The position numbers and the translations under genes are program-made. A stretch of DNA of 64,000 nucleotides from positions 379 to 64,378 of the forward strand of contig JAQVBZ010000005.1 of NCBI GenBank assembly GCA_028690055.1. The letters run 5' to 3'. This stretch comes from Minisyncoccota bacterium (lineage in GTDB: Bacteria; Patescibacteriota; Minisyncoccia; JAHIHE01; JAGLIN01). Under the pieces are notes generated by a model that had not been told where the DNA came from, searched no databases, and worked only from the letters and a program-made list of their open reading frames with translations. This document shows, one piece after another, positions 331-23,362 of the stretch. The stretch's first letter is position 1. Every line of letters starts with the position of its first letter.

Positions 331-2524
<2,194 letters not shown>

Positions 2525-2550
2525 GCCGAAATGACACAATTCCGACATTT

Positions 2551-3357: not shown

Positions 3358-3602
3358 ATTAAAAGTTATGATTATAACTATGCTATTGCATATTATTAGG
3401 AATGCAGTTTTTATACCCTAACTTGGCCTCGCTACGCCTTGGCATCGACGTGAACGTATCCGTCTAAAAGCCACACCAAAGACAACCGATACGATTTATA
3501 ATCTATAGCCTGTTAATTATCAAGATCCCCTCTCTACAATATATCACACTTTAACAACAAAAAAACGGGCAAATGCTGTCTGCTTCCTTCACGATTCCGA
3601 TA

Positions 3603-4046
3603 TCAATTAGCGTAGATACACTCATTGTTATTACAAGTAGCCGTTTCCCAACCACCAGTATTGTCTATTCCCGGTGTCAAAACAACTGAAAAAGTTCCTC
3701 CATCGCAATCATCATCAACCACGATTGAGCCAATAGAGGAAGCCGAAGGAAAGTCGCCATAGGAAGTGATATCGGAATAGTCTGAAGCTTTTCGACAAAT
3801 AGAATCTCCCGGCAAAGGCGAAGTATCTGCTGCAACCATTAGAGTAGTATTTACTGACTCGCAACACATTAGCAACGACGACTGTACACTTTTAGTGGTA
3901 GTCTGGAAGGAAACCCTGTTTGCCTTTATTCTAGCACCGGTTATGGAAGACATTACTATTGTCGACAATAGGCCAATGATCGAAATCACGACCAGAATTT
4001 CGATTAGAGAGAAACCCGAAATTTTTCTTCCAACAATCTTTTTCAT
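3603..4046 (-). CDS. Type IV pilin / pseudopilin-like protein
   Basis: N-terminal class III signal: MKKIVGRKISGFSLIEILVVISIIGLLSTIVM (G|FSLIE plus hydrophobic helix). C-terminal Cys-rich DDDCDGGTFS motif shared with the neighbouring pilin. Confidence 0.75.
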   Translation of the reverse strand: MKKIVGRKISGFSLIEILVVISIIGLLSTIVMSSITGARIKANRVSFQTTTKSVQSSLLMCCESVNTTLMVAADTSPLPGDSICRKASDYSDITSYGDFPSASSIGSIVVDDDCDGGTFSVVLTPGIDNTGGWETATCNNNECIYAN

Positions 4047-4169
4047 GTGTCTTATAAATTTATTTATATATTAACTTATGAACTAATAATATCACAAGTT
4101 ATATTTTTATACAATTTTAAAACGGATAGTCAAACTATCCGTTTTAAATTTAAAATTCAGAAAAACATC

Positions 4170-4562
4170 CTAAGAGAAATCGCAACTTGTTTCAGTACAA
4201 ACTGCAGCACTTGTCAGAGTTCCTGCAAAACTAGTAGGAAGATCGATGGTCAATGTAAAGTCCCCAGCGTCACAGTCATCTGTTACTACAACAGCACCGA
4301 TACCTGTAGGATAGTTGGCGCCCCCTGTACATATCGCCGTTCCCGCATCTGCAGCAACCGCATTCAATGCAGGACTAGGTTCGTCGCAACAGAGAATAGC
4401 ACCAGACTGAATACTGGAAACTGACGACTTGTACGATGCATCCGCAGCTTTTCTTCTTGCTCCGTTAAGGGAAGTCATAGCGATGGTCGATAGAATACCG
4501 ATGATAGCGATAACTACCAAGAGCTCTATAAGGGTAAAACCTTTAGTATTATTCATTTTCAC
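4170..4562 (-). CDS. Type IV pilin (major pilin candidate)
   Basis: MKMNNTKGFTLIELLVVIAIIGILSTIAM prepilin leader with N-methylation motif. C-terminal cysteines and DDCDAGDFT motif. RBS GGGAGGTG upstream. Confidence 0.8.
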   Translation of the reverse strand: MKMNNTKGFTLIELLVVIAIIGILSTIAMTSLNGARRKAADASYKSSVSSIQSGAILCCDEPSPALNAVAADAGTAICTGGANYPTGIGAVVVTDDCDAGDFTLTIDLPTSFAGTLTSAAVCTETSCDFS

Positions 4563-4629
4563 TTTTCTTCACCTCCCTTCAATTATTTTTTAGTTTATTA
4601 ATCTATATCTCTTAAACTTTGGAATTCAT

Positions 4630-4666: not shown

Positions 4667-5743
4667 CTATTTCCTAAGAAGCATCTTCAAATCGTTAGAG
4701 TTAGTAGAATAAGTCATCGCATCCTCGATAGAAATCTCTCCGTCCTTTACCATCTTCGCCAACGAGCTATTGAGCGATACCATTCCTTCATCGGCGCTGG
4801 TGTTGATTACCAGATCCAGCTGATGAACTTTATTCTCGCGAATAAGATTCTTGACTGCGGAATTCGCTTTCATAATTTCCACCGCCGGGATTCTCCCTCC
4901 CCCCACGCGCGGGATGAGTCTTTGTGAAATTACCCCCAAAAGATTACCCGCTAGCTGCGCACGAATCTGATTCTGCTGGCTAGCCGGGAAACTGTCAATA
5001 ATACGGTCGATTGTCTGCGCGGCACTGTTGGTGTGCAGCGTGGCGTAAACGAGGTGCCCAGTCTCCGCCGCAGTGATTGCCATACTGATTGTCTCCCAGT
5101 CACGAAGCTCTCCGACCAGAATTACGTCAGCATCCTCACGGAAAATCGCCCGAAGCGCATTAGAAAAAGACTTAGTGTCTGTCCCCACTTCCCGCTGATC
5201 GATCATACAACGATTCTGTGTATACACGTATTCGATAGGATCCTCAACGGTGATGATGTGCTTGAATTTCTCCAAATTGATCCTGTCGATGAGCGCCGCC
5301 AGAGTAGTGGATTTACCATGACCGGAAGGTCCTGTCACCAACACAAAACCTTGCGCCGGCTTGGTAAAATCATAAACGGACGCGGGCATACTTAGCTCTT
5401 CCAATGTTCTGATCCGGGACGAGATGAGACGGAAAGAAGCCCCCACGGAACCTCTCTGAAAGAAAGCATTGACACGAAATCTCATCTTTCCTTCCAATTC
5501 ATAGGACATATCCAACTCCTGATCCGCTAAAAACGCTTCTCTCCTTTCCTTGCTCAAAATAGACGTCACCAGCTCGAACGTATCTTGTGCCGAGAGAATT
5601 TCTTTCTTGTCGAGCGGGACCAATCTCCCGTCGATCCGCACGGTCGGATATCTGCCCACTGAAAGGTGCAGATCAGACCCTCCTTCTTCCGCAGTAATTG
5701 CCAAGAGGCTTTCCATGACTTGTTTAGAATCGATACCTGACAT
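4667..5743 (-). CDS. pilT: Twitching-motility / pilus retraction ATPase PilT
   Basis: 358 aa. Walker A GPSGHGKSTT, Asp/His boxes, and an AIRNLIRE-like motif (SAVKNLIRENK) that is diagnostic of PilT rather than PilB. Confidence 0.85.
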   Translation of the reverse strand: MSGIDSKQVMESLLAITAEEGGSDLHLSVGRYPTVRIDGRLVPLDKKEILSAQDTFELVTSILSKERREAFLADQELDMSYELEGKMRFRVNAFFQRGSVGASFRLISSRIRTLEELSMPASVYDFTKPAQGFVLVTGPSGHGKSTTLAALIDRINLEKFKHIITVEDPIEYVYTQNRCMIDQREVGTDTKSFSNALRAIFREDADVILVGELRDWETISMAITAAETGHLVYATLHTNSAAQTIDRIIDSFPASQQNQIRAQLAGNLLGVISQRLIPRVGGGRIPAVEIMKANSAVKNLIRENKVHQLDLVINTSADEGMVSLNSSLAKMVKDGEISIEDAMTYSTNSNDLKMLLRK

Positions 5744-6166: not shown

Positions 6167-7924
6167 TTATTCTTCGGTCACTCTCAAAATTTCCTCTATC
6201 GTCGTCAATCCTTGTAATGCTTTCACGATACCATCTTGTTTCATAGTTATCATCCCCTGCCGTCTTGCCTCTTTCTCGATTTCGCTGTCGGTAATACTGG
6301 CATGAATAATCTTTTCCATATCAGGAGTCATATTCAGCATTTCATAGATACCGACACGCCCATTCGATCCCGAATTTTTACATTCCTTACATCCCTTCCC
6401 CCGATAAAACTTAAACCCCTTATCCAAATCAATATCCAATCTCTGGTCAAGAGGAATCTTACGTATTTCCGCTTCAACTTCAGCAGTCGTTTCTGCGGAG
6501 ATTTCAATCTCCTCTTTGCAATAGGGGCAAATCCTGCGTACCAGCCGTTGAGCAACGCAAACATTGAGCGCCGAGCCGATCAAGAACGGCTCGATCCCCA
6601 TGTCCACCAGACGCGGAATCACACCCACGGAATTGTTCGTGTGCAGCGTCGAGAGCACCAAATGCCCGGTGAGTGCCGCATGCATCGCGAGCGAGGCCGT
6701 CTCCTTATCGCGAATTTCCCCCACCATTATGATGTCCGGGTCTTGACGCAGAATCGAGCGCAACCCCGACGCAAAATCATATCCTATTTCCGGCTTCACC
6801 TGGCTCTGGTTAACGCCCGCGAGATAATATTCTACGGGATCCTCCAACGTCACAATATTGACTCCTTCCCGATTGAGTATTTTCAAAAGAGCATAAAGCG
6901 TAGTCGATTTTCCCGACCCGGTAGGCCCTGTAATCAGAATGATGCCGAACGGCTTCTCAATATTTTCGTTGAGTATCTCCAAAGCCTTGGGCCTGAGCCC
7001 CAAAGACTCCAAATTACCTATTTCCGACGTAGTGTCCAAAATACGCATCACCACCTTCTCACCATTCACGGTCGGAAACGTGGAAATACGAAGATCTACG
7101 CTCTTGGTAATATGGCCTTTCTCACTCAAATTGAAGCGAAACCTCCCATCCTGAGGCTTCCTTGTCTCGTCTATTTTCAAATTGGAAAGAATTTTGATTC
7201 TGGAGACCACCGCCGGTGCCAATTTTTTCGGCAATACAAGGCTGTCGTGCAAAACCCCGTCCAAGCGATACCGCACGCGCAAATCCTTTTCTGTAGATTC
7301 GATATGGATATCGCTTGCCTTCCCTTCGACCGCATGCGAAACGATGATATCAACCACCTTACTGATTGGAGCCTCTTCGGTAATCCGATCATTCTCAAGT
7401 TGCGAGCTTTCATCATCCTTACTCTGCGCATCCTCAATCCGATCCCCCACGTTCTCCAAAGCGTCTTTGAGTTCATCACCAAGGTTTTTGTGTTGTTTGA
7501 CGATTGTATCAAAACTGCCTTGAGAAATAAGGTACGTCTGGGTATTGATCCCATGTCTGATTGAGATGAATTTTAACGCGTCCAGAGCCTCCAGGTCATT
7601 GGGGTTTACCATACCTACCTTAAGCAAAGTACCGTCAAATTCGAACGGCAATATCTTGTAAAAAACGATAGCTTTGTCCGGAATCGCCGCAAAGACCGTA
7701 TTATCTATCACTCTGTCTTTGAGTGAAATATACGGAATCTTCAGAAAATCCGCTTTTATCTTAGTAATCTCCTCTTCTTTAAAGAATTTTTTATTCAGTA
7801 AGACATCAAAAATATTCGAGGAGTTCCTTTTTGCCTCTTCATAAGCGATACCAAGATTCTCCTTCTTGTCCACAGCGCATGTCAGCAGATACTCATAAGT
7901 TTTGTCTAATTCTTGAATATCCAT
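6167..7924 (-). CDS. pilB: Type IV pilus assembly (extension) ATPase PilB/GspE family
   Basis: 585 aa. N-terminal GSPII_E-type domain, Walker A GPTGSGKSTT, tetracysteine CPYC...CKEC Zn motif typical of PilB/GspE. Confidence 0.85.
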   Translation of the reverse strand: MDIQELDKTYEYLLTCAVDKKENLGIAYEEAKRNSSNIFDVLLNKKFFKEEEITKIKADFLKIPYISLKDRVIDNTVFAAIPDKAIVFYKILPFEFDGTLLKVGMVNPNDLEALDALKFISIRHGINTQTYLISQGSFDTIVKQHKNLGDELKDALENVGDRIEDAQSKDDESSQLENDRITEEAPISKVVDIIVSHAVEGKASDIHIESTEKDLRVRYRLDGVLHDSLVLPKKLAPAVVSRIKILSNLKIDETRKPQDGRFRFNLSEKGHITKSVDLRISTFPTVNGEKVVMRILDTTSEIGNLESLGLRPKALEILNENIEKPFGIILITGPTGSGKSTTLYALLKILNREGVNIVTLEDPVEYYLAGVNQSQVKPEIGYDFASGLRSILRQDPDIIMVGEIRDKETASLAMHAALTGHLVLSTLHTNNSVGVIPRLVDMGIEPFLIGSALNVCVAQRLVRRICPYCKEEIEISAETTAEVEAEIRKIPLDQRLDIDLDKGFKFYRGKGCKECKNSGSNGRVGIYEMLNMTPDMEKIIHASITDSEIEKEARRQGMITMKQDGIVKALQGLTTIEEILRVTEE

Positions 7925-8125: not shown

Positions 8126-9253
8126 CTATGCTCTCTTTTCAAAATTGTAGAGAGCCAGACCGACCGCCACTGCATAGGAAGAAGAAATCGTCCGCAACTT
8201 TTCCTCCAAGAGACTGTCATAAGAAATGTCCTGAAAAGGATTTCCTATCTCCACCGGCAGATTCATCTCTTCGGACATATATTCCTGCATACCGGGCATT
8301 TGCGATGAACCTCCCGTCAGAATTACGCCAGAAATTTTCTTGCCATTAGTATGAAGATATGCCTGCTCGTTCTTCTTGGCCTCAGAAACGATGATGCCCA
8401 AGATAGGCATAAGAATGTCTGCCAATTTCTTGTCTGAGGGAGAATTCAATCCGGATTCTTTCTTGAGAAGATTTGCCCTTTCTATATTTACCCCGAAGCT
8501 ATTGGCGACGACCTTGGTCAATTCCTCGCCTCCCACCGCAGAGATACTGTGGCTTTCCGTGACTGAACCATCGTCCACAACAGTAATACCTGTCATTTTA
8601 TACCCGATATCGATTATGATATATACACCAGGTCGGTGCCCTACCAGAGAACGAGCTAACGAGAATGATTCTGTTTCAAGCGACACCAAATCCAAGCTGA
8701 AAGCATTTGCGATTGCCAGATACTTCGCTGAAATTTCTTTCGGAATGGCAATCAAGAGTACGCGGGTATTGTCCCCACCACCGAATTGGCTGCCACTATT
8801 CACCGCCGCAGACTCTTTCCCTTTCGCATCCTGCGCATTGCGATCATTGGAAATTATGCTCCAGCCAAAAACAATCTCATCCATCGGAATCGGTATATAT
8901 TTAGGAGCATCATAATTGACTGCGGCCTCAAGCTGCTCTTTAGGCATTCGAGGAAAGGAAACTACGGAAGTGAAAGTTGAAGAAGCCGGCACAGACATCG
9001 CGACTTTATGATGCGCCACGTCCGCCGTGTTCAAAATGGTCTTCATACTCTCGATAGTATCTTTGTCCAAAGATTGGATATCTTTCTTCGCAATCGTTCC
9101 GTCAGGATTGATTCGCTTCCCCGCTTCCAGAGAAACGTAGTTCCGCAGAGCGACCCGCCCGTTATCCCAAGCGAGCTCGACAATCCTTATCCCGGTAGTT
9201 CCCAGATCTATTCCGAAGAACGAGGAAGAATTTTTACTCAAAAATGACAACAT
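8126..9253 (-). CDS. pilM: Pilus assembly protein PilM-like (actin/FtsA-like ATPase fold)
   Basis: 375 aa. N-terminal FFGIDLGTTGIRIVEL phosphate-1 motif of the actin-like fold. Located in the pilus cluster. Confidence 0.7.
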   Translation of the reverse strand: MLSFLSKNSSSFFGIDLGTTGIRIVELAWDNGRVALRNYVSLEAGKRINPDGTIAKKDIQSLDKDTIESMKTILNTADVAHHKVAMSVPASSTFTSVVSFPRMPKEQLEAAVNYDAPKYIPIPMDEIVFGWSIISNDRNAQDAKGKESAAVNSGSQFGGGDNTRVLLIAIPKEISAKYLAIANAFSLDLVSLETESFSLARSLVGHRPGVYIIIDIGYKMTGITVVDDGSVTESHSISAVGGEELTKVVANSFGVNIERANLLKKESGLNSPSDKKLADILMPILGIIVSEAKKNEQAYLHTNGKKISGVILTGGSSQMPGMQEYMSEEMNLPVEIGNPFQDISYDSLLEEKLRTISSSYAVAVGLALYNFEKRA

Positions 9254-9271: not shown

Positions 9272-9787
9272 TTACTCGCCCCGGACCTGAATCTTGGTCG
9301 CGGAATTCTTTTCTACCTTCGGCATCTTAATGGTAAGGATACCATTCTTCATCGAAGCCTCCACTTTATCAATCATAATATCGCAAGGCAAAATCACCGA
9401 CCTCGAGAAACTACCCCAAAAACATTCCTGATAATAATAGTTTTCCTCCGCCACCTCTTCGGCCTTCTCCCGTGAACCTCGAATAGTAACCATATCGCTG
9501 GTAACCGACAAATCCAAATCTTCCGGTCTGATTCCGCCGACAATCGACCTGATTACTACATAATCGTCGTCCTGGTACACGTCGATAGCGAGCTGCCCTT
9601 CTTCTTCCACCCCTTCCTCGTCGTTACCCCAGTTATTTTCCATCTCCGTCTCTCTGTTTACTTGCTCGTCTTTATCCTGAATAGCGATAGCGTCTTTAAT
9701 CTGTGACTCCGACTGCACCTCGGTATCGGGATAACCCTCTTCCGACCCGACGATCTTGTCCAGGAAGGATTTCTTTTGTTTCATCAT
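9272..9787 (-). CDS. Small heat-shock protein, Hsp20/alpha-crystallin family
   Basis: 171 aa. Alpha-crystallin domain with C-terminal GILTIKMPK signature and an acidic N-terminal region. Confidence 0.8.
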   Translation of the reverse strand: MMKQKKSFLDKIVGSEEGYPDTEVQSESQIKDAIAIQDKDEQVNRETEMENNWGNDEEGVEEEGQLAIDVYQDDDYVVIRSIVGGIRPEDLDLSVTSDMVTIRGSREKAEEVAEENYYYQECFWGSFSRSVILPCDIMIDKVEASMKNGILTIKMPKVEKNSATKIQVRGE

Positions 9788-11244: not shown

Positions 11245-13932
11245 TTACATCGCTCCTAATTTCTCCTCGATCTTCGCCAGTTTCTCCATACTCTCACTCA
11301 ACTTGCCCTTCTCCGCCTCGATAATATTGTCCGGGGCCTTTGAAACAAAAGTCTCATTTCCCAGTTTCTTTTGAAGGTTGCTCACAAAAGCAGTGAGATT
11401 CTGCTTTTCTTTCAAAAGATTCTGCTTTTCTTTCTCCATATCCACCAGCCCCTCGAGAGAAACATAAATTTCCACACCCGACAAGACCGCTACTGCCATT
11501 CCTTCTTTCTTGGCAAAAGTTTCCGCGACTTCCAAATCTTCCACCCGGCCTAAAAATTTTATGATCTCAACTTGAGCCACGATCAGGTCTTTCTTCTCCA
11601 CCGAAACGATTACGACTTTCACTTTTTTCTTAGGCTCGATCTTATATTCCGCGCGGATATTGCGGATGCCGGTTATTATATCTTTAACAATTTCAAAATT
11701 CGCCTTCGTGTCCTCCTTTTGCAAAGCAACCGTTTCCGGCCATTTCTGCACCATCAGTAGCTCCCCTGTTTCAAAGTCTTTCCAGATTTCCTCCGTAACA
11801 TATGGCGCAAAGGGGTGCAGAACAATAAGCAATCTTTCTAGAACATACAATAATATCTCGTCTTTGCTTCCCTCGACTTTGGCAATCTCCAGATACCAAT
11901 CAGCCAACTTGCTCCAAGTGAAATCATAAATCTCTTCGCCTGCGGCAGAGAATCTGAAATTTTCCAGATTATCCTTTACGTCGGAAATCAAATGATCCGT
12001 CTCTCCCAAAATCCACTCATCCGCCAAAGTTTTCGCCTCAGGACGCATCTCAACACGCTGCACATTTTCCACGCTCATCAAGATATAGCGCGACACGTTC
12101 CAGACTTTGTTCACAAAATTTCGATAAGTCTCAATCTTCTCTTCATAGACCTTGAGGTCATTCCCCGGCGTCGAACCGATGATAAGACTGAGCCTGAGCG
12201 CATCCGTACCGTATTTCTCAATCATCTCAAGCGGATCAATCCCGTTTCCCAGCGACTTGCTCATCTTCTTGCCTTCCTTATCGCGGAGCATCCCATGCAA
12301 ATAGACATTCTCAAAAGGAACTTCGCCCAATACATAAGTCGTCATCAAAATCATACGAGCAACCCAAAAAGGAAGAATATCATAACCAGTTTCCAAAACA
12401 CTGGTCGGATGATATTTCAAAAGGTCCGGACTGTTTTCCACCCATTCATCGAAGTTGGCATATTTCGCAAAGTCCTTGTCCATCAGCGTCGAAAAAGTCC
12501 ACGCGCCGGATGAGAACCAAGTATCGAAGGTGTCGGAATCCTGCCGCAAATGAGAGCCCTGACACTTGGAACAACCAGCCGCCTCGTCTTTTTGCAGAAC
12601 CACCCCTCCGCAATCCTCGCAATACGAAACCGGGATCCGATGTCCGAACCAGAGCTGACGGGAAACGCACCAGTCGCGCAGATTCTCCACCCAGCTAAAA
12701 TACGTCTTCTCGAATCTCTCGGGGATAATCTTGATCTCCCCTTCCTGCACGACCCGCAGCATCACCTCCTTGAGAGATTTGTCCTGGAAATATTTATTAC
12801 CGTCCTTGGTAATCTTTTTATTGACATCGATAAACCATTGTAGCGACGGCAAAGGTTCGATGGCAGCATTGCAACGATAGCAGACGCTCAAATTCTGCGG
12901 TACTTCTTCTTCTTTTTCCATCAACCCCTGATCACGAAAATGCTTCGCAATCTTTTCTCTTGCCTCCAGTGTGGTCAGTCCCTCATAATCCTTGCCCGCC
13001 TCCGCTGTCATCTTGCCGTCCTCACCGATAACTTTGATGGTCGGCAGATCATTTTCCGTCGCCATCTGAAAATCCGCCATACTGTGCGCCGGCGTCACGC
13101 CCAAAGCCCCCGTCCCGAAAGCCATATCGACAGTCCAGTCGGCAATAATTCTGATTTCGTGCTCGCCGTTTCCCAGATCGATCTTATAAGTTTTGCCGAT
13201 AAATTCCTTGTAGCGATCGTCTTTAGGATTGACCGCCACCGCCACATCGCCCAGCTTGGTTTCGGGCCTGGTAGTCGCGATGGTAATCGGAAAATCTTTT
13301 TGATATTTGAAATAATAAAATTTGCCTTCTTTCTCTTCATGCTCCACCTCGTCATCAGCAAGCGTTGACTCGCACCGCGGGCACCAGTTCACGATCCGAT
13401 TACCCCGATAGATGAGACCGTCTTCATACATCATCGTAAAAACTTGCCGCACCACTTCCGACAATCCCTCATCCAACGTGTACCGCTCGCGCGACCAATC
13501 GCACGAAGACCCCATCTTACGTACCTGCTCGCGGATGGTATCCCTCGAACCCTCGACATATTCGTGCACACGTTCCAAAAATTTCTCCCGTCCCAAATCA
13601 TATTTAGTCAGTCCTTCCTTAGCGATGTTTTTTTCCACTTTGGTCTGTGTGGCGATGGAAGCATGATCCGTCCCCGGCAACCACATTGTCTGCTTCTGCT
13701 CCAAACGATTGAATCTGACCATCAGATCCTGATAGGCAAGCATCGAAGCATGTCCCAAGTGCAAAATTCCCGTCGCATTTGGTGGCGGCATAGAAATCAC
13801 AAATTTCTCGGGCGTTTTACCCTCCCCCGCACATGGCAAATTATCAGGATTAAAAAATCCGGACTCTTCCCACTCCTTATAAATCTTATCTTCCACTTCC
13901 TGTGGCTGATATGCCTTCGGTATCTCACGCAT
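11245..13932 (-). CDS. valS: Valyl-tRNA synthetase
   Basis: 895 aa. HIGH motif (PPPNATGILHLGHA), KMSKS motif (KMSKSLGN), editing domain, C-terminal coiled-coil. Confidence 0.92.
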   Translation of the reverse strand: MREIPKAYQPQEVEDKIYKEWEESGFFNPDNLPCAGEGKTPEKFVISMPPPNATGILHLGHASMLAYQDLMVRFNRLEQKQTMWLPGTDHASIATQTKVEKNIAKEGLTKYDLGREKFLERVHEYVEGSRDTIREQVRKMGSSCDWSRERYTLDEGLSEVVRQVFTMMYEDGLIYRGNRIVNWCPRCESTLADDEVEHEEKEGKFYYFKYQKDFPITIATTRPETKLGDVAVAVNPKDDRYKEFIGKTYKIDLGNGEHEIRIIADWTVDMAFGTGALGVTPAHSMADFQMATENDLPTIKVIGEDGKMTAEAGKDYEGLTTLEAREKIAKHFRDQGLMEKEEEVPQNLSVCYRCNAAIEPLPSLQWFIDVNKKITKDGNKYFQDKSLKEVMLRVVQEGEIKIIPERFEKTYFSWVENLRDWCVSRQLWFGHRIPVSYCEDCGGVVLQKDEAAGCSKCQGSHLRQDSDTFDTWFSSGAWTFSTLMDKDFAKYANFDEWVENSPDLLKYHPTSVLETGYDILPFWVARMILMTTYVLGEVPFENVYLHGMLRDKEGKKMSKSLGNGIDPLEMIEKYGTDALRLSLIIGSTPGNDLKVYEEKIETYRNFVNKVWNVSRYILMSVENVQRVEMRPEAKTLADEWILGETDHLISDVKDNLENFRFSAAGEEIYDFTWSKLADWYLEIAKVEGSKDEILLYVLERLLIVLHPFAPYVTEEIWKDFETGELLMVQKWPETVALQKEDTKANFEIVKDIITGIRNIRAEYKIEPKKKVKVVIVSVEKKDLIVAQVEIIKFLGRVEDLEVAETFAKKEGMAVAVLSGVEIYVSLEGLVDMEKEKQNLLKEKQNLTAFVSNLQKKLGNETFVSKAPDNIIEAEKGKLSESMEKLAKIEEKLGAM

Positions 13933-14842
13933 AAATGTAATATGATTATATTTTTCTTAAAAGTGCTTCATAAAGCCATATTAACACACGCTCTTGCGTT
14001 AGGAAAGAGGGTTTGCGCAAAAAGAAGGACGGCCCCTACAGAATCGAAAGGACTGTCCTTGCAAAAGTTTCTACGAAAAAATCAGGAACAGCCATAACGT
14101 TACCGGTTGTTTATAAAGAAGATGATACGACTCAAGGACTGATCGGGGACGAGAGAGATGTTGCCTCTCTATCAAGTACGACTTCACTGTTAATTCCATA
14201 TTTTTTAGACAACAAAATACTGTCCTTTTGATTGCCGTCGCCTTTTGAGCGATATTACCCTTTAAGGTAATAGTCTTAGATTCCCCTTTCGACAAAAATA
14301 TTGAAGTATCAAAAATTATCTTATTATCATCGATAGAACCTACCGCAAAAATTTGTTATCCGAATAAAGATAGGCCGTATCCGGATTGATATCTTTTAGA
14401 TACGAAACGGAGCTGGTCATATTAAGGCCTATTAACTTGATAGCGGTTACCGTGCCGAGATTTGAAAGATCGGCTGAAACTTCTTCATTTTCTCGATTTC
14501 AGTAGCAGAGGTCTTTGACATCTCGACATTCAGTGTGTCAGGAATGGACAAAAGGATATCCACGCTCGCATAAGCTTCATTGATGTCTGAATTGATTCCG
14601 ACGGTTTGGAACATAAAAAATAAATCTAAACATAGTAGGCTTAATATTCCGACCCCCGAGGATTTTTTTGTTTTTGATCATTTTTGTTTCTTCCTTTTTT
14701 AGGATTGCGTGACACCTCGTGTTTTTATGTCTTCGTAATAGCATAAATAACGGTATAAATCGACACAGTTCACCCCCTATCGACAAGCACGGCAGTTAAA
14801 TATCCGAATCAAGGTTAAAAAGAGGTGCGAGAATCTATATCC

Positions 14843-14942
14843 GGAGTAGCGGATTTTGGCCTGCCTCCACGATACCATAAGCTAGATCTACAGAGAGCTA
14901 CTCACTCATAGGACAGCCGCTCGAGATAAATTCCGCTGCTCC
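14843..14942. ncRNA. Divergent copy D of the repeated structured element (GGAGUAGCGG ... GAUAAAUUCCGCUGCUCC)
   Basis: 10-bp closing stem with one G.U pair. Shares the GATAAATTCCGC 3' hairpin with copy B. Embedded in a 915-bp non-coding stretch. Confidence 0.3.
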
Positions 14943-15146
14943 CAAAACGTATAATCGATTTTTTTATTTATTAGAATTACGTGACGTCGCTAAAGTATAG
15001 GCTTAAAATAAGAACAGAATCATTCTCCCATGAACACATATCCGAATAAAAAATCTTTTCCCCAAGAAACTACTCTTATGTCTATTTACACCAACAAAAA
15101 AGGCACAAGCTATTGTGCCCCCTGCAAATTCAAAAACAAAGATATT

Positions 15147-15809
15147 TTATTCCACCTCAAACGACTCAAGTATTTTTTTCTCTTCCTCTGTCAGACTCCC
15201 CTTATCCGCGCGGTATGTAAAGCTGATTTCATACAAGCGCCCGTCTTTCTCGATATATTTTCCGTAAGAATCCCCTTCACCGCTCACGATTACCTCCATT
15301 GTTTGCACTCCGTTCAGTCCCGCCTCGGTAATTCGAGTAATGTTTGGATCTTTACCGATAAGTTCTCTCATCGTTGTTGCTCCGTATCCGTTTGCCTTGT
15401 TGATAGATGACTCGGCGACTGTCGGCGCATAATGCACGATGACATCTGCTACAGGTTCTACGGTCTCACCCTCGACAACCCCGGATTCCATACGAGCATT
15501 TTCCATCGTCTCCGGACTGGTCAATTTCACGATAGTATTTCCGTATTCGTCCTTGTCCTCTTTGACAGTCCAGTTTTCGGGATAGTCCAGATTGAATTTT
15601 TCTTCCTTATTATCATAAAGCTGCCAGACGATTCCGCTATCCGCCACCGTTTCTGTCTGCATATTTTCAGCCGCATTTTCATTTTCCCCAACCGCCTTCT
15701 CCCCGCCTTCGCTCGCGCTGTTATCAGTAAAAAAAATTATAAGCAATGTAAGTGCACCCAAGAGGATTATAGAGGCGATATAAATTTTTTTCGTCTTTTT
15801 CATAGACAT
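15147..15809 (-). CDS. Hypothetical membrane-anchored/secreted protein
   Basis: 220 aa. N-terminal TM/signal anchor (IYIASIILLGALTLLIIFF) then an acidic extracellular domain. Confidence 0.5.
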   Translation of the reverse strand: MSMKKTKKIYIASIILLGALTLLIIFFTDNSASEGGEKAVGENENAAENMQTETVADSGIVWQLYDNKEEKFNLDYPENWTVKEDKDEYGNTIVKLTSPETMENARMESGVVEGETVEPVADVIVHYAPTVAESSINKANGYGATTMRELIGKDPNITRITEAGLNGVQTMEVIVSGEGDSYGKYIEKDGRLYEISFTYRADKGSLTEEEKKILESFEVE

Positions 15810-15945
15810 TTCTTTAATTTATCTTATTTATATTTTAGCACAAAAAAACCTCGCGACAAATCGCAAGGTTTATTGTATTGAGCCGACTATATTTATAGCC
15901 GTTAATATTCACAAAACGTCAGATAGAATCCATCAATTCTGCCTT

Positions 15946-18900
15946 TTACTTCAGCTCTCCCCCATTCTGATACCAGTTGAATTCAGTTTCATTTACAGAA
16001 AGAACGTAATTCCAATTGAGCTGGTATTTATTGAAAATCGTAGGGTTAGGGATACGCTTCTTAATATTGTTCTCAACGAGATAGACGTCATTAGATCCTT
16101 CTAGTTTGACAAGGTTGGAAATAGGATAAGCATCTATTTCGTTTTTAGAGACGATCTGGACATCTTCCCATCTGTCATTGTAAGAGTTGAAGATCTCCGC
16201 AGTGGGGATGTGTTTACGAACCCCCTCTGGGTTAATATAGTAGACTTCTTCTTTGCCTGATTCTCTAATGAGATAGACGTCTTGATATTTATTGAAGATC
16301 GAGTCATCTACGTCTTTTACATCATCCCAACTGAAACCATAGTTCAGGAATATATCAGGATTGGGAATGTGACGTTTGGTACCGTTGGTTACCAGATAAA
16401 TTTTGAAGTCATCTATCAGACGGATTAGATTATCTTCAATGTCCTCAAGAGTATTCAACGTTTCTTCGGCAATAGTCTGAACTTCTGTCCATTGATAGCC
16501 CAATTGCTCGAATACTTCCGGGGTGCTAATCCATTTTTTCTCACCACCCACGATGACATATATCTTGGGAGAATCAGGAATCTTGATGAGAGTACCATCA
16601 GGATAATTACCGCCATTACCGTCTTCATTCTTATAGCTGGCAGTAAGGATCACAGGCAGAGAAGGCATCGTCACTGTGGTAGTGGCAGAGTTGATATCGG
16701 AAACAAAAGAAGTATTTCCTGTCCATCTATTGAATATTTTACCGTCAGTAGGCGTGTCAGCGGTAATCGTAATCGTTGTGCCGGGAGCATAAGAGCCTTC
16801 GCCGGAACCGTTATTAACCGTGAGAAGATATTCACCTTGAGGAGACTCCGTATATGTAGCAACGAGAGTTATATCCTCTTCAGGCATCGTAACAGTGGCA
16901 GTCTCTTTGGTTACATCATCGACATGACTTGTGTCACCAACCCATTTGATGAACACCCTGCCGGCATCGATATCTTTGGCAGTGATGTTAATTTTTGTAC
17001 CGGGGAGATAATCATTGCCTCCAAAACCACTTGAAACTGTAAGTTTGAAAGTCTCTCTGTCGGATTTCCTGAAAGTGGCAACAAGAATGATACTATGATC
17101 AGGAATGGTGACCACGGCGGTCGGACTGTAGATATCAGAAATATAAGCGGTGTCTCTGGTCCATTTGTAGAAAGTTAATCCCCTATAAGGTGACTTGGCG
17201 GTAATGGTAACTTTTGTGCCCACAGGATAAGTTCCGTCGCCAGAACCGTAGCCTATCATCAAAAAGCTGGTAGCGGAATTATCAGGAACATCAGAGTCTT
17301 TGTAAGTAGCAGTGAGAGTAATCGCTTTGGCTGGCATCGTGACTGTGGTAGTTAACGATGTTGTACTGTCTATATAAGAAGTGCTGCCTGTCCATTTGTC
17401 GAACACTTTACCTGTAGCGGGATTATCGGCGGTAATCACCACTTCTTCCCCTTGAGCGTATGAGCCATCGCCCGCTCCATTATTGACAGTAAGAGCATAG
17501 GTAGAAACAGCGGCATTTTTATAGGTGGCTACCAGAGTTATAGATGAAGCCGGCATCGTCACCGTAGTGGTTGCGGCTGTCGTACTGACAATAGAAGAAG
17601 TGCTGCCTGTCCATTTGTCGAATACTTTGCCCGTAGCGGGAGTATCAGCCTTGATGGTAACTTGCGTGCCTGCGGCGTAAGAACCGTCTCCTGTTCCATT
17701 GGTAACGACAAGTGAATATTTGGTAGCATCTTTGTAGGTAGCAGTTAAAGTGGTGGCTGCAGCCGGCATCGTCACCGTGGTGGTTGCGGATGTCGTACTG
17801 GCAACAGAAGAAGTGCTGCCTGTCCATTTGTCGAACACTTTACCTGTAGCGGGAGCGTCAGCAGTAATAGTGACTTGCGTGTTTGCAGGATAAGAACCGT
17901 CGCCTGTTCCATTATTAACGGTAAGAGAGTAAGTGGCGGTAGTGCTATTCTTGTAGGTGGCAGTTAAAGTTATAGCTGATCCCGGCATCGTTACTATGGT
18001 TGTGGCGGAAGTGGCGCTAGTGATATATGAAGTGCTGCCTGTCCATTTGTCGAACACTTTACCTGTAGCGGGATTATCGGCGGTAATCACCACTTCTTCC
18101 CCCTCAGAGTACGAACCATCACCGGTACCGTTTGTTACCGTCAAAGTATATGTAGGGGCATCTTTATAGGTAGCGATTAAAGTGATGTCTGCAGCCGGCA
18201 TCGTCACCGTGGTGGTTGCGGATGTCGTACTGGCAACATATGAAGTGCTCCCCGTCCATTTGTCAAATATTTTACCCGCAGCCGGAGCATTGGCTGCGAT
18301 AGTTACTTTTGTGCCGGAAGCGTAGGCTCCATCGCCGGAACCGTTGGTTACGGTGAGAGCATAAGAAGAAGGAGCCGCGGTCTTATAGGTTGCGGTAAAA
18401 GATATATTTGCTGCGGGCATAGTAAACGTATTGGTGTATGAAGCCGCATTATCAAGATACTGAGTACTCCCCGTCCATTTGTCAAACTCTTTTCCGGAAG
18501 CAGGCAGATCGGCGATAATAGTCACCTCATCTCCCGCGGAATAGGTACCGTCACCCAAACCGTTATTTACCGTGACAGTATAAGTAGCGGGATTGGTCAC
18601 TCCTCCGCCACCTGTAGCCCCACTCGTACCTCCCGCTAACCCATCAATACCGATTTTACGTCCGGAAAACGCAGAAGCCAACGAGCCACTGCTGACGGTC
18701 CAATAAGTATTTCCCGCCTTATTAGATCCATATTTCTGAAAGACATACCCCGATGCAGTTTTAATATTATTCGAATCACTGCCTCCACCCACAGCCGTAC
18801 CTGCATTAATCATAATATTATGATGAGACGATGAACTGGAAGGTACGTAATTGATGGCATAAGGTAAATTCACAAACAGATTGTTGTAATATTCGTGCCC

Positions 18901-19845
18901 GCTTCCACTCGGACTCTGTCCCGGATAGCCTATGGCACCATAAGATCCGCTTGCGCCGGAAATATCGTGAAAATAATTGTTATAGATTTTAACATTTGAA
19001 AAACTATTTTGTAGTTCTAAGGCGGATCCACCACCGGAACCGGTATAGAATTCATTATTATACACATAGCAACCGTTGCCACTACCGGCACATCTCACCC
19101 CGGAATTGGTTCGCATAGCGACAATGTTGTTGTGAAACTTCAGATTGTAAATGCCGTATCCTTGGACAGCATCATGCCCTATCATATCAAAAACACTATT
19201 AGAAACTTCCATATCGTCACCTCCCGCCCTGATTCCGTCGTGCATCCCATTGGTAAATTTGACGTTATCAATAGTGACAAAAGTTGCCCAATAGACATCC
19301 ATAAGGTTAAATTCAGAACGCCCTCTATCATCGGCGCTACACGGATAATAGTCTCCGCAACTTCCATCAAGAGTAATGTTGGATATTGTTACGTCAGTGA
19401 CATCTCTCCACACGTTTATGATGCCTGCGTCACCGGCGCCACTATCGGTTCCTCCCCATCCTGTAGTTCCAGGACCCCCGTATGCCTTTGCCGTCAATCC
19501 AGCCGCTATTTTAAGTACCACTCCACTTCGGCTCTGTCCTTTAATGTCTACGTGTGACTTTGCTAAAATATGGCTGGCAACCTCGTAAGGTTTGGACGCG
19601 TTCTCGATATATACTACTCCCGGGTTACTACTCGTTGCTCCTGAAGCCGCCGCATTGATAGCATTGTTAATTACTGCGTAAGCATTGGTTCCGCTGGGAT
19701 TATAATAAAAATAAGTTGAGCTCGCCTTGCTTGCCGTCTGCCCGACTGTAACAGAAGCGGCAGAGGCCCCTGACGTAAAACCGAAGGAAAACAAAACAAA
19801 GAACAAGAACACAAGCAAACGAGATTTGAAACTTCTCATAGTCAA
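15946..19845 (-). CDS. Giant secreted surface protein: signal peptide, right-handed parallel beta-helix (pectate-lyase/NosD-like), ~10 tandem ~80-aa Ig/InlB-B-like repeats, C-terminal ~45-aa repeats
   Basis: 1299 aa. Signal peptide MTMRSFKSRLLVFLFFVLFSFGFTSGASA. Beta-helix region carries NNxxxG repeats. Repeated unit TVTNGTGDGSY..G..VTI.AD.PATGKVFDKWTGSTSY...TSATTTVTMPA..ITLTATYK occurs about 10 times. C-terminal KIY.V.NG.KRHIPNP.IF..YG..W.DV repeats occur 4 times. Confidence 0.7.
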   Translation of the reverse strand: MTMRSFKSRLLVFLFFVLFSFGFTSGASAASVTVGQTASKASSTYFYYNPSGTNAYAVINNAINAAASGATSSNPGVVYIENASKPYEVASHILAKSHVDIKGQSRSGVVLKIAAGLTAKAYGGPGTTGWGGTDSGAGDAGIINVWRDVTDVTISNITLDGSCGDYYPCSADDRGRSEFNLMDVYWATFVTIDNVKFTNGMHDGIRAGGDDMEVSNSVFDMIGHDAVQGYGIYNLKFHNNIVAMRTNSGVRCAGSGNGCYVYNNEFYTGSGGGSALELQNSFSNVKIYNNYFHDISGASGSYGAIGYPGQSPSGSGHEYYNNLFVNLPYAINYVPSSSSSHHNIMINAGTAVGGGSDSNNIKTASGYVFQKYGSNKAGNTYWTVSSGSLASAFSGRKIGIDGLAGGTSGATGGGGVTNPATYTVTVNNGLGDGTYSAGDEVTIIADLPASGKEFDKWTGSTQYLDNAASYTNTFTMPAANISFTATYKTAAPSSYALTVTNGSGDGAYASGTKVTIAANAPAAGKIFDKWTGSTSYVASTTSATTTVTMPAADITLIATYKDAPTYTLTVTNGTGDGSYSEGEEVVITADNPATGKVFDKWTGSTSYITSATSATTIVTMPGSAITLTATYKNSTTATYSLTVNNGTGDGSYPANTQVTITADAPATGKVFDKWTGSTSSVASTTSATTTVTMPAAATTLTATYKDATKYSLVVTNGTGDGSYAAGTQVTIKADTPATGKVFDKWTGSTSSIVSTTAATTTVTMPASSITLVATYKNAAVSTYALTVNNGAGDGSYAQGEEVVITADNPATGKVFDKWTGSTSYIDSTTSLTTTVTMPAKAITLTATYKDSDVPDNSATSFLMIGYGSGDGTYPVGTKVTITAKSPYRGLTFYKWTRDTAYISDIYSPTAVVTIPDHSIILVATFRKSDRETFKLTVSSGFGGNDYLPGTKINITAKDIDAGRVFIKWVGDTSHVDDVTKETATVTMPEEDITLVATYTESPQGEYLLTVNNGSGEGSYAPGTTITITADTPTDGKIFNRWTGNTSFVSDINSATTTVTMPSLPVILTASYKNEDGNGGNYPDGTLIKIPDSPKIYVIVGGEKKWISTPEVFEQLGYQWTEVQTIAEETLNTLEDIEDNLIRLIDDFKIYLVTNGTKRHIPNPDIFLNYGFSWDDVKDVDDSIFNKYQDVYLIRESGKEEVYYINPEGVRKHIPTAEIFNSYNDRWEDVQIVSKNEIDAYPISNLVKLEGSNDVYLVENNIKKRIPNPTIFNKYQLNWNYVLSVNETEFNWYQNGGELK
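16650..18600. repeat. Intragenic near-identical tandem DNA repeats (~240-bp units) encoding the Ig-like repeats of the giant surface protein
   Basis: Long recurring blocks such as ggcatcgtcaccgtggtggttgcggatgtcgtactggcaac...gtgctgcctgtccatttgtcgaacactttacctgtagcggg. Confidence 0.7.
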
Positions 19846-20552
19846 TGAATTATTTTTTTTAATCGAACACTATATAAAAATGTACTTAAATTGGAAAACG
19901 AACTTTTGAATATTTAGAAAAAGACATCCTGCCACTTAAGGACAAAAAGTCTTTTCTAGAAAATTCTGAATATCAGTATGTGATGTCCGGGTCTATTATA
20001 TAATCGAATAATAAAGCACCTTATTTTTTTATATAAACATTTATATTCTAACTTACATCAGTATTATAACATAATTAAATCCCATAACAAGACCGATGCA
20101 AAGCACGCCACAAAATTAAATATTTTATCGAATATCAGCTCCAAAAAAAATTAAGATTTTACCATTTACGAAAAGCTTGTATTGCTATAAGTCGTAAACA
20201 ACGAAAGAAGGTGAAGTGAGAACATCGGATTTGCATACGGACACCCAAAGCTGAGTCTGATACTGATATTTTTCTTAGCCATAATGGGCTGCGCGGCTCT
20301 GATCTATAAATCATTAACCTGAGAAATAACATATTCCCCCAAGTCTTTATTTGCCTATCGGCCGTTTTGGACACCAATAAATTCAAGATAACCCCGTTGA
20401 TTAAATTATTCATATTATAAAAAACTATCAAACCGGACAATTTTACTTATACGACTTTGTTTCCACACAAAAACGCCCTACGGACTACCGCATGGCGTTT
20501 TATCGATCCGGACCCGGTTCGTAAAAAAATTATCGCTCTATTTTGATTCCGA

Positions 20553-21215
20553 TTACATAGAATTCCTATCAACCGTATTGATTCCATATAGACCGGCAAT
20601 ATCGAAAGTCCACTCAGGATTACCATAGCCTTCGAACCCCCCTTTCACTCCCGTGCCACCCTGAGATTCCAGTCTCCGAACCTTATTTTCACCCGCCACG
20701 AAAGCATGATCCGAAGTGACACAAGAATCCTTCACCATGTCATTTACGATCAGGATATTTTCCCACTTGAGATGTCCATAGCTCTTGAAAACCGACGGAC
20801 TCAATATCAAACGTTTGAATCTCTTGTTGTTTTTTGTATTTGGCAATATAGACATCGATACCGACTTCATTACGCATAACCGCCACTGAAAAGCCTGACC
20901 GGATAGTCATAGGCTGCATTGTACTCATGCTTGTACCAATCCCAGTCTTGAATCGACATATCTTTATCGTTCAGCCAATTATAATCCGCCCCATCCTGAG
21001 CTCTTGCCCCTTGAATAAGAGATAGACCCAAGAGCCCTGCCCCTCAAGCCATAATTACCAGAATACTCGACACGGTTTGTTTTTTTATTTTTATTGTTCA
21101 AATATTTTAAAAAGATCCACCAGCTATTTAGATTGGCTATATGATAACGCGAGATAGGAAAAATCAAGAGAACGTGATAACGAAAAGGATGGTCCTTTCG
21201 ATTCTGTAAGGACAA
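20553..21215 (-). pseudogene. Cluster of short frame-disrupted ORF fragments (possible decayed gene)
   Basis: Three co-directional ORFs of 60-105 aa in different frames (20553-20870, 20740-20928, 20979-21215) with no start or RBS context. Confidence 0.2.
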
Positions 21216-21259
21216 TCCTTGCCCCGCATTTTGAAAGATGATTATCTTTATATTGAAAC

Positions 21260-23362
21260 CTATTCCAAATGAACATCTTTCTCGAAAATCCTGATTCGCG
21301 ATAGAAGTTCGGGATATTTCTTGAGATCCGCATCCATTTCCAAGATAACTTTCGCTTCTTCTCGTGTCGCCTGAATGAGCTCAGAATCGGAAAGCGATGC
21401 CATCGCCAAATCGGGCAACCCCGATTGTCGCACTCCGACCAGTTCTCCCGGACCGCGTAATTCCAAATCTTTCTGCGCCAAATCGAATCCGCTCTCACAC
21501 TCGATGAGCGCTTTGAGCCGTCGATGAGCCTTGCCCGAAGTCGAATCGGTAAAAAGGAAGCAACGCGACTGAAACTCTCCCCGCCCGACTCGGCCGCGGA
21601 ATTGGTGCAACTGCGCCAGACCGAATCGGTCCGCACCTTCAATAAGCATTACGGTAGCGTTAGGAATGTCTATTCCCACTTCCACCACAGAGGTCGAAAC
21701 CAGAATATTGATTTTGTTTTTCGAGAACTTTTTCATCACCTCTTCTTTCTCTTTCGGTTTCATCTTCCCGTGCAAAAGCCCGATTGCAAGATCGGGATAA
21801 ATTTCTTTCTCGAGCTTCTCGAATGTTTCCGTTGCCGATTTTACTTCCAGTACATCGGACTCCTCAATCAACGGACAAATGACAAACGCCTGCCGCCCGG
21901 ATTTGATTTCCTTGCGGATAAAATCGTAAGTACTCTCCCGATTGCCTGGCGCCACCAGCTCGGTAATGATTTTCTGACGCCCCTTCGGCATCTCATTCAA
22001 AATAGACAGATCCAAGTCACCATAGACCGTAAGAGCGAGCGTGCGCGGAATCGGCGTTGCCGTCATCGACAAAAGATGCGGCACTGTCGCCACAAACCCG
22101 TCCTCGATATCTGATACTTCACTTTGAGTCTGTGCCCGCTGCTCGATACCGAAACGGTGTTGTTCATCCACGACGGAAAGCGCGAGACTCTTGAAAAAGA
22201 CTTTCTCCTGGATGAGCGCATGCGTGCCGATCACCAAATCCGCCTCACCTTTCTTTATTGCAGATAATATCTTTTCCTTGGTCAAACTCTTTTCGTCCCT
22301 GCCGTCAAAATATCTGCTTTCACTTCCCGTGAGAAGCGCAATCCTGATATTTGTGCCGTGAAATCTTTTCAAACTTTCCGCAAAATGCTGCCTCGCCAAG
22401 ATTTCCGTCGGCGCCATAATGAGTGCTTGATAGCCGGAGCGGACCGCCACCAACACCGCCAAAAGCGCCACCAAAGTTTTTCCGGAACCCACGTCGCCCT
22501 CCAAAAGCCGGTTCATCGGACTGTCTTTTTCCATATCCTTAATGATTTTCCAAACAGCGATTTTTTGCCCATCAGTAAGCTTGAACGGCAGCTTCTCCAA
22601 GAAATATTTTATTTCCGCTTCCAATTCTTTGTCATACCTGATTCCCACCGCTTTCTGCCGTTGCCATTCCTGCCTCTGCCGCTGCATATATAACTGCACC
22701 AGGAATAGTTCATCAAAAGCGAGCCGCCGTTTGGCAAGCTCCGCCGCCACATCATCATCCGGAAAATGTATCTGCCGGATCGCTTCACTCAGACCCAGTA
22801 AATCCTGCCGCTCCAAAACTTCCTCCGGCAAAAACTCCGTCGCCTCGTCCGAGAGAGACAATAGCGGCTTGATATGTACGCGCAACCATTTGGAAGAAAG
22901 TCCCTCCGTTTCGTGATAGACCGGCACCAACCGCCCCGTGTGCAGATTGCTCTTGCCCAACGCCTCCCATGCGGGACCGGAAAGCTGCATTCCTTCCTTG
23001 GCAAAAGTAACCTTACCACTCAAGCTGACATTCGTTCCTGCCTTCAAACTGTTCGTCAAAAACGGCTGATTGAACCAGACCGCCCGTATTACCCCCGAGT
23101 CATCCTCGATCGCCGCTTCGGTAAGTATCATATTCCGCCGCCGCGTCCGCACGTTTTGAATCTCCAAAATCTCTCCTTTTATGCTCACCACCTGCCCCAC
23201 TTCCACATCCTTGATCGCTTTGAAATCCGAAAAGTCATCATAGCGGAAAGGAAAATGAAAAAGCAGGTCCCCGGCAGTTCTGATACCAAGCTTGTGCAGA
23301 TACAAGACATTGCGCGGCCCGACCTGCGGCAATTCTTCGATTGGAGTTTTGAGTGTTATCAT
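21260..23362 (-). CDS. recG: ATP-dependent DNA helicase RecG
   Basis: 700 aa. N-terminal wedge/OB domain, Walker A GDVGSGKT, DEQH box (VVDEQHRFG), helicase C motifs QLHQFRGRVGRG. Confidence 0.9.
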   Translation of the reverse strand: MITLKTPIEELPQVGPRNVLYLHKLGIRTAGDLLFHFPFRYDDFSDFKAIKDVEVGQVVSIKGEILEIQNVRTRRRNMILTEAAIEDDSGVIRAVWFNQPFLTNSLKAGTNVSLSGKVTFAKEGMQLSGPAWEALGKSNLHTGRLVPVYHETEGLSSKWLRVHIKPLLSLSDEATEFLPEEVLERQDLLGLSEAIRQIHFPDDDVAAELAKRRLAFDELFLVQLYMQRQRQEWQRQKAVGIRYDKELEAEIKYFLEKLPFKLTDGQKIAVWKIIKDMEKDSPMNRLLEGDVGSGKTLVALLAVLVAVRSGYQALIMAPTEILARQHFAESLKRFHGTNIRIALLTGSESRYFDGRDEKSLTKEKILSAIKKGEADLVIGTHALIQEKVFFKSLALSVVDEQHRFGIEQRAQTQSEVSDIEDGFVATVPHLLSMTATPIPRTLALTVYGDLDLSILNEMPKGRQKIITELVAPGNRESTYDFIRKEIKSGRQAFVICPLIEESDVLEVKSATETFEKLEKEIYPDLAIGLLHGKMKPKEKEEVMKKFSKNKINILVSTSVVEVGIDIPNATVMLIEGADRFGLAQLHQFRGRVGRGEFQSRCFLFTDSTSGKAHRRLKALIECESGFDLAQKDLELRGPGELVGVRQSGLPDLAMASLSDSELIQATREEAKVILEMDADLKKYPELLSRIRIFEKDVHLE

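Follow-up and report, generated by a model that had tools for sequence, protein, structure and literature searches.

The 64,000 nt stretch analysed here (hereafter the window) is part of contig JAQVBZ010000005.1 (assembly GCA_028690055.1), from an uncultured, ultra-small member of Candidatus Paceibacterota (candidate phyla radiation, CPR; Patescibacteria). On its minus strand lies a long open reading frame (ORF) that encodes a secreted, modular protein, made up of a signal peptide, a beta-helix head, a stalk of nine repeat units and a tail of four further repeats. The composition and order of these domains, the finding of no other anchor in the protein, and the family-wide position of the tail module at the C-terminus argue, with moderate confidence, for a cell-surface protein of the InlB-like, head-stalk-anchor kind that is held non-covalently to the cell envelope by its C-terminal end. 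The parts of the gene are as follows (window positions).

15946..19845, minus strand: whole ORF, uninterrupted, with its stop codon at 15946-15948; 1299 aa when counted from a TTG codon
19759..19839, minus strand: Sec signal peptide MRSFKSRLLVFLFFVLFSFGFTSGASA, identified by inspection from its basic n-region, hydrophobic core and A-x-A site
18586..19758, minus strand: N-terminal head, aa 30-420, predicted right-handed parallel beta-helix and remote homologue of PL1 pectate lyases
18832-19278, minus strand: Pfam Beta_helix (PF13229) match within the head, aa 190-338
16627..18585, minus strand: stalk of nine Flg_new_2 units, delimited by Pfam, Tandem Repeats Finder, an anchor motif and a unit profile
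18379-18585, minus strand: stalk unit U1
18160-18366, minus strand: stalk unit U2
17947-18153, minus strand: stalk unit U3
17728-17934, minus strand: stalk unit U4
17515-17721, minus strand: stalk unit U5
17296-17502, minus strand: stalk unit U6
17065-17271, minus strand: stalk unit U7
16846-17052, minus strand: stalk unit U8
16627-16833, minus strand: stalk unit U9
15949..16599, minus strand: C-terminal module, aa 1083-1299, four repeats of ~52 aa, each beta-beta-beta-alpha-beta-alpha
16438-16599, minus strand: module repeat R1
16282-16437, minus strand: module repeat R2
16123-16281, minus strand: module repeat R3
15949-16122, minus strand: module repeat R4

The reading frame is open over the full 1299 codons reported in the initial annotation of this DNA. 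Translation probably begins two codons past the TTG, at the ATG at 19839, giving a protein of 1297 aa, and an independently made public gene call (P0027) starts at this ATG and has this length. Export, also part of that annotation, is upheld by the N-terminal signal peptide, for which inspection of the residues predicts cleavage after ASA, that is, between MRSFKSRLLVFLFFVLFSFGFTSGASA and the AS that follows. A scan of the whole protein against NCBIfam gave no meaningful match.

The C-terminal module had no significant match in Pfam, NCBIfam or the sequences of the PDB. A model built from a 13-sequence alignment was of high confidence (predicted local distance difference test score, pLDDT, 92; predicted template modelling score, pTM, 0.83), and showed four strands and two helices in each ~52 aa repeat. 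The initial annotation had recognized the four repeats and their KRHIPNP..F..YG..W.DV motif, although it placed their length at ~45 aa, and the structure prediction it recommended for them returned a confident, EccB-repeat-like fold. When the module was compared with the PDB using Foldseek, the top ten matches were all periplasmic domains of mycobacterial EccB proteins (probability ~1, E 2.5e-6 to 2e-4). The repeat domains of EccB1 have been reported with a size and composition like those of the module repeats, and EccB repeats have been likened to the cell-wall-binding protein PlyCB (PMC4769845); PlyCB itself was absent from the top 50 Foldseek matches of the module. As modelled, the relationship to EccB would be a structural one only, confined to the fold of the repeat unit. 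The possibility that the protein is itself an EccB was considered and rejected, as it is without the core domain and the transmembrane (TM) helix, and its neighbours are genes for RecG, a PsbP_2-like protein and valyl-tRNA synthetase (ValRS), not ESX genes.

The fold of the repeat was also seen among viral models, where a single module repeat superposes on uncharacterised (actino)phage proteins with a root-mean-square deviation of 1.3-1.4 Å. Weak matches to the module fold (probability 0.5-0.75) included phage lysin, amidase and CHAP proteins and the endolysin LysIME-EF1 (6ist_C). A tblastn search of 50,697 phage genomes with the module gave no match, and a direct phage origin is unsupported on this count.

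No other means of retention was detected. A Pfam and motif scan of the protein found no LPXTG, SLH, GW, LysM or CW_binding signals, and no TM element; the sole LPxxG string (LPASG, aa 447) lies within the first B-repeat and not at the C-terminus. Anchoring to an S-layer through SLH domains, or to the wall by a sortase, was rejected as no such domain or signal was found. Of the functions suggested in the initial annotation (adhesin, S-layer-associated or host-attachment protein), a role at the surface or in attachment is still the most plausible, while the S-layer part is dropped for want of an SLH or any other S-layer domain.

The module is the common element of a large family. A profile of the 13 sequences, searched against 1.84 billion representative proteins, recovered 5,946 representative clusters at E<=1e-3, 2,689 of them at E<=1e-10 and 629 at E<=1e-30. 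The consensus is L-I-K..(5-7)..V-Y-x-I..G-x-K-R-x-I..(4)..F...G..W..V..V....(L/E)..Y, in tandem repeats of ~52 aa. Among the top module-bearing proteins, 147 of 157 have no more than 10 residues between the end of the module and the C-terminus, and a few have longer arrays. Sixty members were scanned for other domains: no Pfam model lies over the module in any of them, and their N-terminal partners are all of extracellular types, namely Kre9_KNH, fn3, Laminin_G_3, Big, PKD, CARDB, Cohesin, CAP, Disaggregatase-related, Beta_helix and Flg_new_2 domains, along with Glucodextran_B, Rha78A Ig and Cys-rich heads. In some members a TM helix and a low-complexity linker are all that precedes the module. 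Because a C-terminal position combined with diverse extracellular partners recurs across the family, the pattern is that of a shared surface-retention or anchoring module.

The named records that carry the module belong to Candidatus Paceibacterota, candidate division WWE3 and metagenome-assembled genomes (MAGs) labelled Saccharibacteria, all annotated as hypothetical. A further search with an alignment of 21 modules gave at least 40 matches and few names of organisms, and the taxonomic range of the family rests on these few labelled records. The only named record from outside the CPR is a single 4.7 kb contig binned as Bacteroidota. Two MAGs hold two module loci each. We found no earlier description of the module in the literature, which is weak evidence of novelty given the incomplete coverage, and the family is probably undescribed.

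For the stalk, the initial annotation had described at least ten tandem Ig-like units of ~240 bp (~80 aa), nearly identical at the DNA level. The repeat motif it quoted is indeed present, the repetition is far above chance, and the profile search for InlB B-repeat domains that it advised was positive, since all nine units are matched by Pfam Flg_new_2 (PF18998, the divergent InlB B-repeat) with a score of 352 bits against a cut-off of 23.6 (E 1.5e-107). The remaining details required revision. The anchor motif F.KW(T/V)G is seen nine times (aa 454, 527, 598, 671, 742, 815, 892, 965 and 1038), at spacings of 71-77 aa (213-231 bp, with a unit of ~216 bp), and a profile made from the nine units recovers those nine and no further one. 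Tandem Repeats Finder reported periods of 213, 219 and 432 bp in the array, with 3.5-4.6 copies and 72-75% matches. Pairwise identity between units is 54-80% (mean 64%) for DNA and 36-83% for protein, and the longest exact word common to two units is 74 bp; for units 7-9, no word in common with another unit exceeds 14 bp. The Ig label also fails, because the fold of the InlB B-repeat is beta-grasp-like (PMC8900821), and by extension from the crystal structure literature on InlB the units here are predicted to be beta-grasp-like and not Ig domains. In fibrillar adhesins, Flg_new-type domains are regarded as stalk domains (10.1101/2021.12.07.471604).

The head was matched by the Pfam Beta_helix model (PF13229; E 8e-9, 35.7 bits, cut-off 25.9), and an AlphaFold2 model predicts a right-handed beta-helix of stacked short strands (pLDDT 79, pTM 0.82). 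A Foldseek search with this model gave 88 PDB matches at E<=1e-3, and all of those listed are beta-helix proteins (alginate epimerase/lyase, AlgE4, AlgE6, polygalacturonases, pectin methylesterase, the RbmB lyase, phage tailspikes and the adhesin PfbA), with TM-scores of 0.3-0.55 that indicate similarity at the level of fold only. A profile of the head and eight homologues, compared with PDB sequences, detected the PL1 pectate lyases 3zsc_A (E 2.3e-7), 4hwv_A (E 2.2e-5) and 1vbl_A (E 0.018). The PL1 alignment spans ~150 residues and includes the 'WIDH..DG' and 'HHN..R.P..R' regions, whereas Pfam Pec_lyase_C was not matched even at E<=10. On these alignments the head appears to be a remote homologue of the PL1 pectate lyases and not a member of that family, and it is in this sense that the earlier term 'pectate-lyase-like beta-helix' can be retained. 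HMMER aligns the invariant DG of the head with the PL1 'DG..D' region and the two Arg of its 'MRTNSGVR' with the 'R.P..R' region, which we take to represent the calcium motif and the catalytic Arg of these enzymes.

Homologues of the head, 43-69% identical, share many invariant polar residues in GHD, AMRTN.G.R, NEF.TG.GG..EL, NYFHDI and GH.YY.N. The closest relatives form an uncharacterised family, with several stand-alone proteins of ~470 aa, and the comparison implies that the head may belong to a conserved but uncharacterised PL1-related family found across distant lineages. One group of head homologues (P0016-P0021) consists of stand-alone proteins of ~380-520 aa, some of which have lipoprotein-like, low-complexity N-termini; one of the group has an EGF-like insert, and one is from Methanosarcina sp. 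T3.

In the arrangement that we propose, the Sec signal peptide would be removed during export, the beta-helix head would bind an extracellular polysaccharide and possibly cleave it, and the nine beta-grasp-like B-repeats would form a rod ~650 residues long that keeps the head away from the cell. The four-repeat module would hold the protein non-covalently on the envelope of the producing cell, either on peptidoglycan or on an associated polymer. We infer a biological role in attachment to, or erosion of, the surface glycan of a host or partner, as we do the ligand of the module and the activity and substrate of the head. A broader proposal, which we put forward tentatively and at somewhat less than even odds, is that the module serves CPR/Patescibacteria as a general, non-covalent cell-envelope anchor, and represents an undescribed family, widespread in these bacteria, with a repeat relationship of the EccB/PlyCB type.

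Several observations weigh against the arrangement proposed. The global TM-score of the module against EccB is only 0.22-0.24, because the four repeats of EccB are split around a core domain while those of the module are contiguous. A sequence link between the two was sought and not found: a 50-sequence profile of the single repeat, run against PDB sequences, matched only a designed Kelch consensus protein, over six sub-significant stretches that were judged spurious, and a sub-threshold match to Pfam EccB (PF05108; E 0.16, 11 bits against a cut-off of 27) did not recur in 60 relatives. Binding of peptidoglycan by EccB repeats is itself a hypothesis only (PMC4769845). With an isoelectric point (pI) of 4.6 (family median 6.1) the module is acidic, whereas GW modules are basic, and in two family members (P0004 and P0007) an N-terminal TM anchor accompanies the module, so that the latter is not needed for retention there. 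The head lacks the second Asp of the PL1 'DG..D', and its first Arg is one position out of register; with this Asp not conserved, lyase activity is uncertain. PfbA, moreover, is an example of a beta-helix head that can be purely adhesive.

The same domains could also be read as those of a freely secreted polysaccharide lyase or hydrolase, in which the B-repeats and the module are binding or spacer parts that target a polymer in the environment. The remote homology of the head to PL1 lyases and its fold matches to beta-helix carbohydrate-active enzymes (CAZymes) would suit such an enzyme, as would the CAZyme-associated partners found in the module family (Laminin_G_3, Glucodextran_B, Rha78A Ig, Disaggregatase) and the lack of a covalent anchor in the protein. 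A 650-residue stalk is, however, hard to rationalise for a soluble enzyme, given the minimal metabolism of CPR bacteria, and the module also closes non-enzymatic proteins, such as those made up of a TM helix, linker and module, or those with Cys-rich or CAP heads. The C-terminal position in 147 of 157 proteins likewise suits an anchor better than a substrate-specific carbohydrate-binding module, and we consider the free enzyme unlikely.

CPR bacteria are typically epibionts, and this could mean that the polarity of the protein is the reverse of that proposed, with the module bound to the cell wall of the host or partner and the rest held on the CPR cell in some other way, for example by the head on the cell's own glycan or S-layer. 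Members with an N-terminal TM anchor, in which a linker carries the module at its far end, are compatible with this orientation, and so are the occurrence of the repeat fold in uncharacterised actinophage proteins and the weak lysin, amidase and endolysin (6ist_C) matches. Those matches are of low probability (0.5-0.75) and had no counterpart at the sequence level in the 50,697 phage genomes, the signal peptide has a cleavable A-x-A site with no other retention element found, and the many different heads joined to one constant module suggest that it is the heads that carry specificity. Reversed polarity is less probable again than the free enzyme. An InlB-like surface protein, anchored to its own cell by the tail, remains the preferred reading.

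The number of stalk units was reproducible, and not an artefact of assembly, because an independent assembly has the same array without gaps. This is L011, a 25 kb MEGAHIT contig from ENA that aligns with window positions 12946-22839 at 99.485% identity over 9,894 bp (51 mismatches, 0 gaps) and encodes the same 1297 aa protein with five substitutions and nine units. Collapse of the array during assembly was rejected on this basis, the comparison of array length being between two full-length strains. A second relative, L001 (a contig from JGI 3300014206), is 99.78% identical to the window and stops at 16785, inside unit 9; its partial protein has also been deposited from an NCBI Paceibacterota MAG. 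Unit 9 is without long exact paralogous words, and L001 ends one base before the position of an L011 variant (16786). Strain microdiversity in the assembly graph, and not repeat collapse, is the best explanation for where the contig stops. The initial annotation had expected an array that is prone to collapse, but two independent assemblies agree on it and the third breaks at strain differences, not at an exact repeat.

The differences between the window and L011 are unevenly spread. Of the 51, 34 are in the array, and 33 of these lie within 16631-17664 (units 5-9), a tract with ~30 single-nucleotide polymorphisms (SNPs) per kb compared to 0-4 per kb in the flanks. Over the gene as a whole there are 41 nucleotide differences, 36 of them transitions, and five amino acid differences. 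The SNP cluster consists almost entirely of synonymous transitions, mostly at third positions; it is contiguous through units 5-9 for ~1 kb, and units 7-9 have no close paralogs. When the units were compared as potential donors, six of eight L011 alleles in unit 5 matched unit 6, and seven of eight window alleles in unit 6 matched units 2 and 4; no single donor unit accounts for the variants of the cluster. From the pattern of variants, the import of an allelic tract of ~1 kb is a better fit than slippage or conversion within the gene.

More distant relatives differ in stalk length. The syntenic orthologue at L012 has the same head (70% identity), the same tail and four B-repeats, and the copy numbers among the relatives of the gene are 9, 4, at least 3, and 1. 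In the relative with one unit, a C-terminal TM/pilin-like segment takes the place of the module. Units 2-6 share 67-83% aa identity with one another and no more than 67% with any orthologue unit, which makes them in-paralogs; unit 1 groups with orthologue units 1 and 2, and units 7-9 are old. The array grew through duplications within this lineage, and these are old, since the DNA of the units has diverged by 20-30%; it is evolutionarily plastic (four versus nine units) and not a fast contingency locus. A 'periscope'-type adhesin, in which near-identical DNA repeats recombine and produce rapid length variation, is the least probable of the alternatives and is largely refuted: the differing copy numbers of the orthologues, the exact words of up to 74 bp shared by in-paralog units 2-6, the ~5-10-fold higher density of SNPs between strains in the array and the breaking of one short-read assembly there are in its favour, but unit DNA identity is just 54-80%, the two 99.5%-identical strains are equal in length with 0 gaps, and the SNP tract, composed mostly of third-position transitions, extends across units 7-9 where a close donor is lacking, a pattern that suits an imported allele better. 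The description of the array as recombination-prone and rapidly variable in length is therefore not sustained, with units that are 20-46% diverged and nine units in both strains without an indel.

The features around the gene are listed below.

15846..15871, minus strand: terminator-like hairpin (consensus scan), an 11 bp stem and then a T run, located 75 nt past the stop codon, ahead of the next gene
20063..20090, minus strand: best promoter-like site (consensus scan), TTGTTA-16-TG-TATAAT, 10/12 matches
19869-19897 and 19849-19878: weaker promoter-like sites upstream of the gene (consensus scan)
15147..15809, minus strand: conserved downstream neighbour, a membrane-anchored PsbP_2-like protein, syntenic in L001, L011 and L012
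20559..21088, minus strand: pseudogene in the 1.4 kb gap between RecG and the gene, a fusion of parts orthologous to 'gene A' and 'gene B' of L012

The count of promoter-like sites was not clearly above that expected from shuffled sequence. The gene order is RecG, surface-protein gene, PsbP_2-like gene and ValRS, and in L012 there are two genes between RecG and the orthologue. These are the intact gene A (2403-3458) and gene B (3507-4592), which code for secreted proteins that each end in two diverged tail repeats. The 5' part of the pseudogene corresponds to the first 68 codons of gene A (69% identity) and has an in-frame stop; the 3' part corresponds to the final ~110 codons of gene B, at 76% identity and with a frameshift, and one diverged copy of the C-terminal repeat of the module is kept. 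Judged from these remnants and their intact counterparts, the locus is a small, changeable cluster of surface-protein genes.

Genes of type IV pili are found 6-11 kb from the surface-protein gene, all on the minus strand, and consist of two coding for T2SSE-family ATPases of the PilB/PilT type (4667-5743 and 6167-7924) and one for PilM (8126-9253). An HSP20 gene (9272-9787) lies next to the PilM gene. Further along the window, from about 34000 to 56000, GC content falls to 0.31-0.40 (compared to ~0.44 elsewhere), and the region includes genes of defence type, coding for a ResIII/DEAD helicase (34240-36366), an N6/N4 DNA methylase (36376-38028), a caspase-like Peptidase_C14 protein (47483-48442) and a Shedu SduA_C protein (54407-55696), along with several ORFs of 340-540 aa that have no Pfam match. 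This region is probably a defence island. The Rfam LOOT RNA family (RF03000) is matched over its full length on the plus strand at 57539-57660, with a score of 73.9 bits (gathering score 46.4; E 5e-12).

Viewed as a putative adhesin rich in repeats, the gene is unremarkable, head-stalk-anchor proteins with Flg_new-type stalks being common. Its noteworthy part is the unannotated, EccB-repeat-like tail, which closes thousands of extracellular proteins that are otherwise unrelated. A large part of all bacterial diversity belongs to the Patescibacteria, which live attached to other cells and whose means of displaying surface proteins are poorly known. If the module is a general envelope anchor, it would be the counterpart in role of the SLH, GW, CWB2 and LysM modules of Gram-positive bacteria, a single profile could list a large part of the proteins that these episymbionts display at their surface, including candidates for host attachment, and the long-standing but unproven idea that EccB-type repeats bind the cell wall would gain support. 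The tail module thus offers a handle for surface-proteome prediction, for the search for host-recognition candidates and for the question of the EccB-like ligand. The head family, with members in the CPR, in Methanosarcina and in bacteria that seem to be GC-rich and to encode lipoproteins, is a tractable target for enzymology.

Several known systems resemble the protein in part. The head has the right-handed beta-helix fold of PL1 lyases, AlgE epimerases, GH28 enzymes, phage tailspikes and PfbA, but differs from PL1 lyases in that it matches only the generic Beta_helix model and its calcium-ligand motif is incomplete. The tail resembles the periplasmic domains of EccB, which are likewise built of four tandem ~52 aa repeats with a four-stranded sheet and two helices apiece; it differs in having no central core, no N-terminal TM helix and no ESX context, in its contiguous repeats, and in showing no detectable sequence similarity to EccB. 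With fibrillar adhesins and periscope proteins it shares the head-stalk-anchor layout, a Flg_new-type stalk and a length that differs among relatives. Unlike periscope proteins, which have highly identical repeats and vary in length between strains, its repeats are 54-80% identical and its length is the same in two strains, and unlike the LPXTG-anchored fibrillar adhesins its anchor is not of the LPXTG type. The closest overall comparison is with InlB of Listeria monocytogenes, in which a binding head is followed by a B-repeat and by C-terminal GW repeats that bind a wall polymer non-covalently (PMC8900821). The present protein comes from a CPR organism and has a beta-helix in place of the leucine-rich repeat (internalin) head, nine B-repeats instead of one, and acidic tail repeats of beta3-alpha-beta-alpha structure in place of the basic, SH3-like GW modules, but the two are built to the same plan of an N-terminal head, middle B-repeats (PF18998) and tandem C-terminal repeats.

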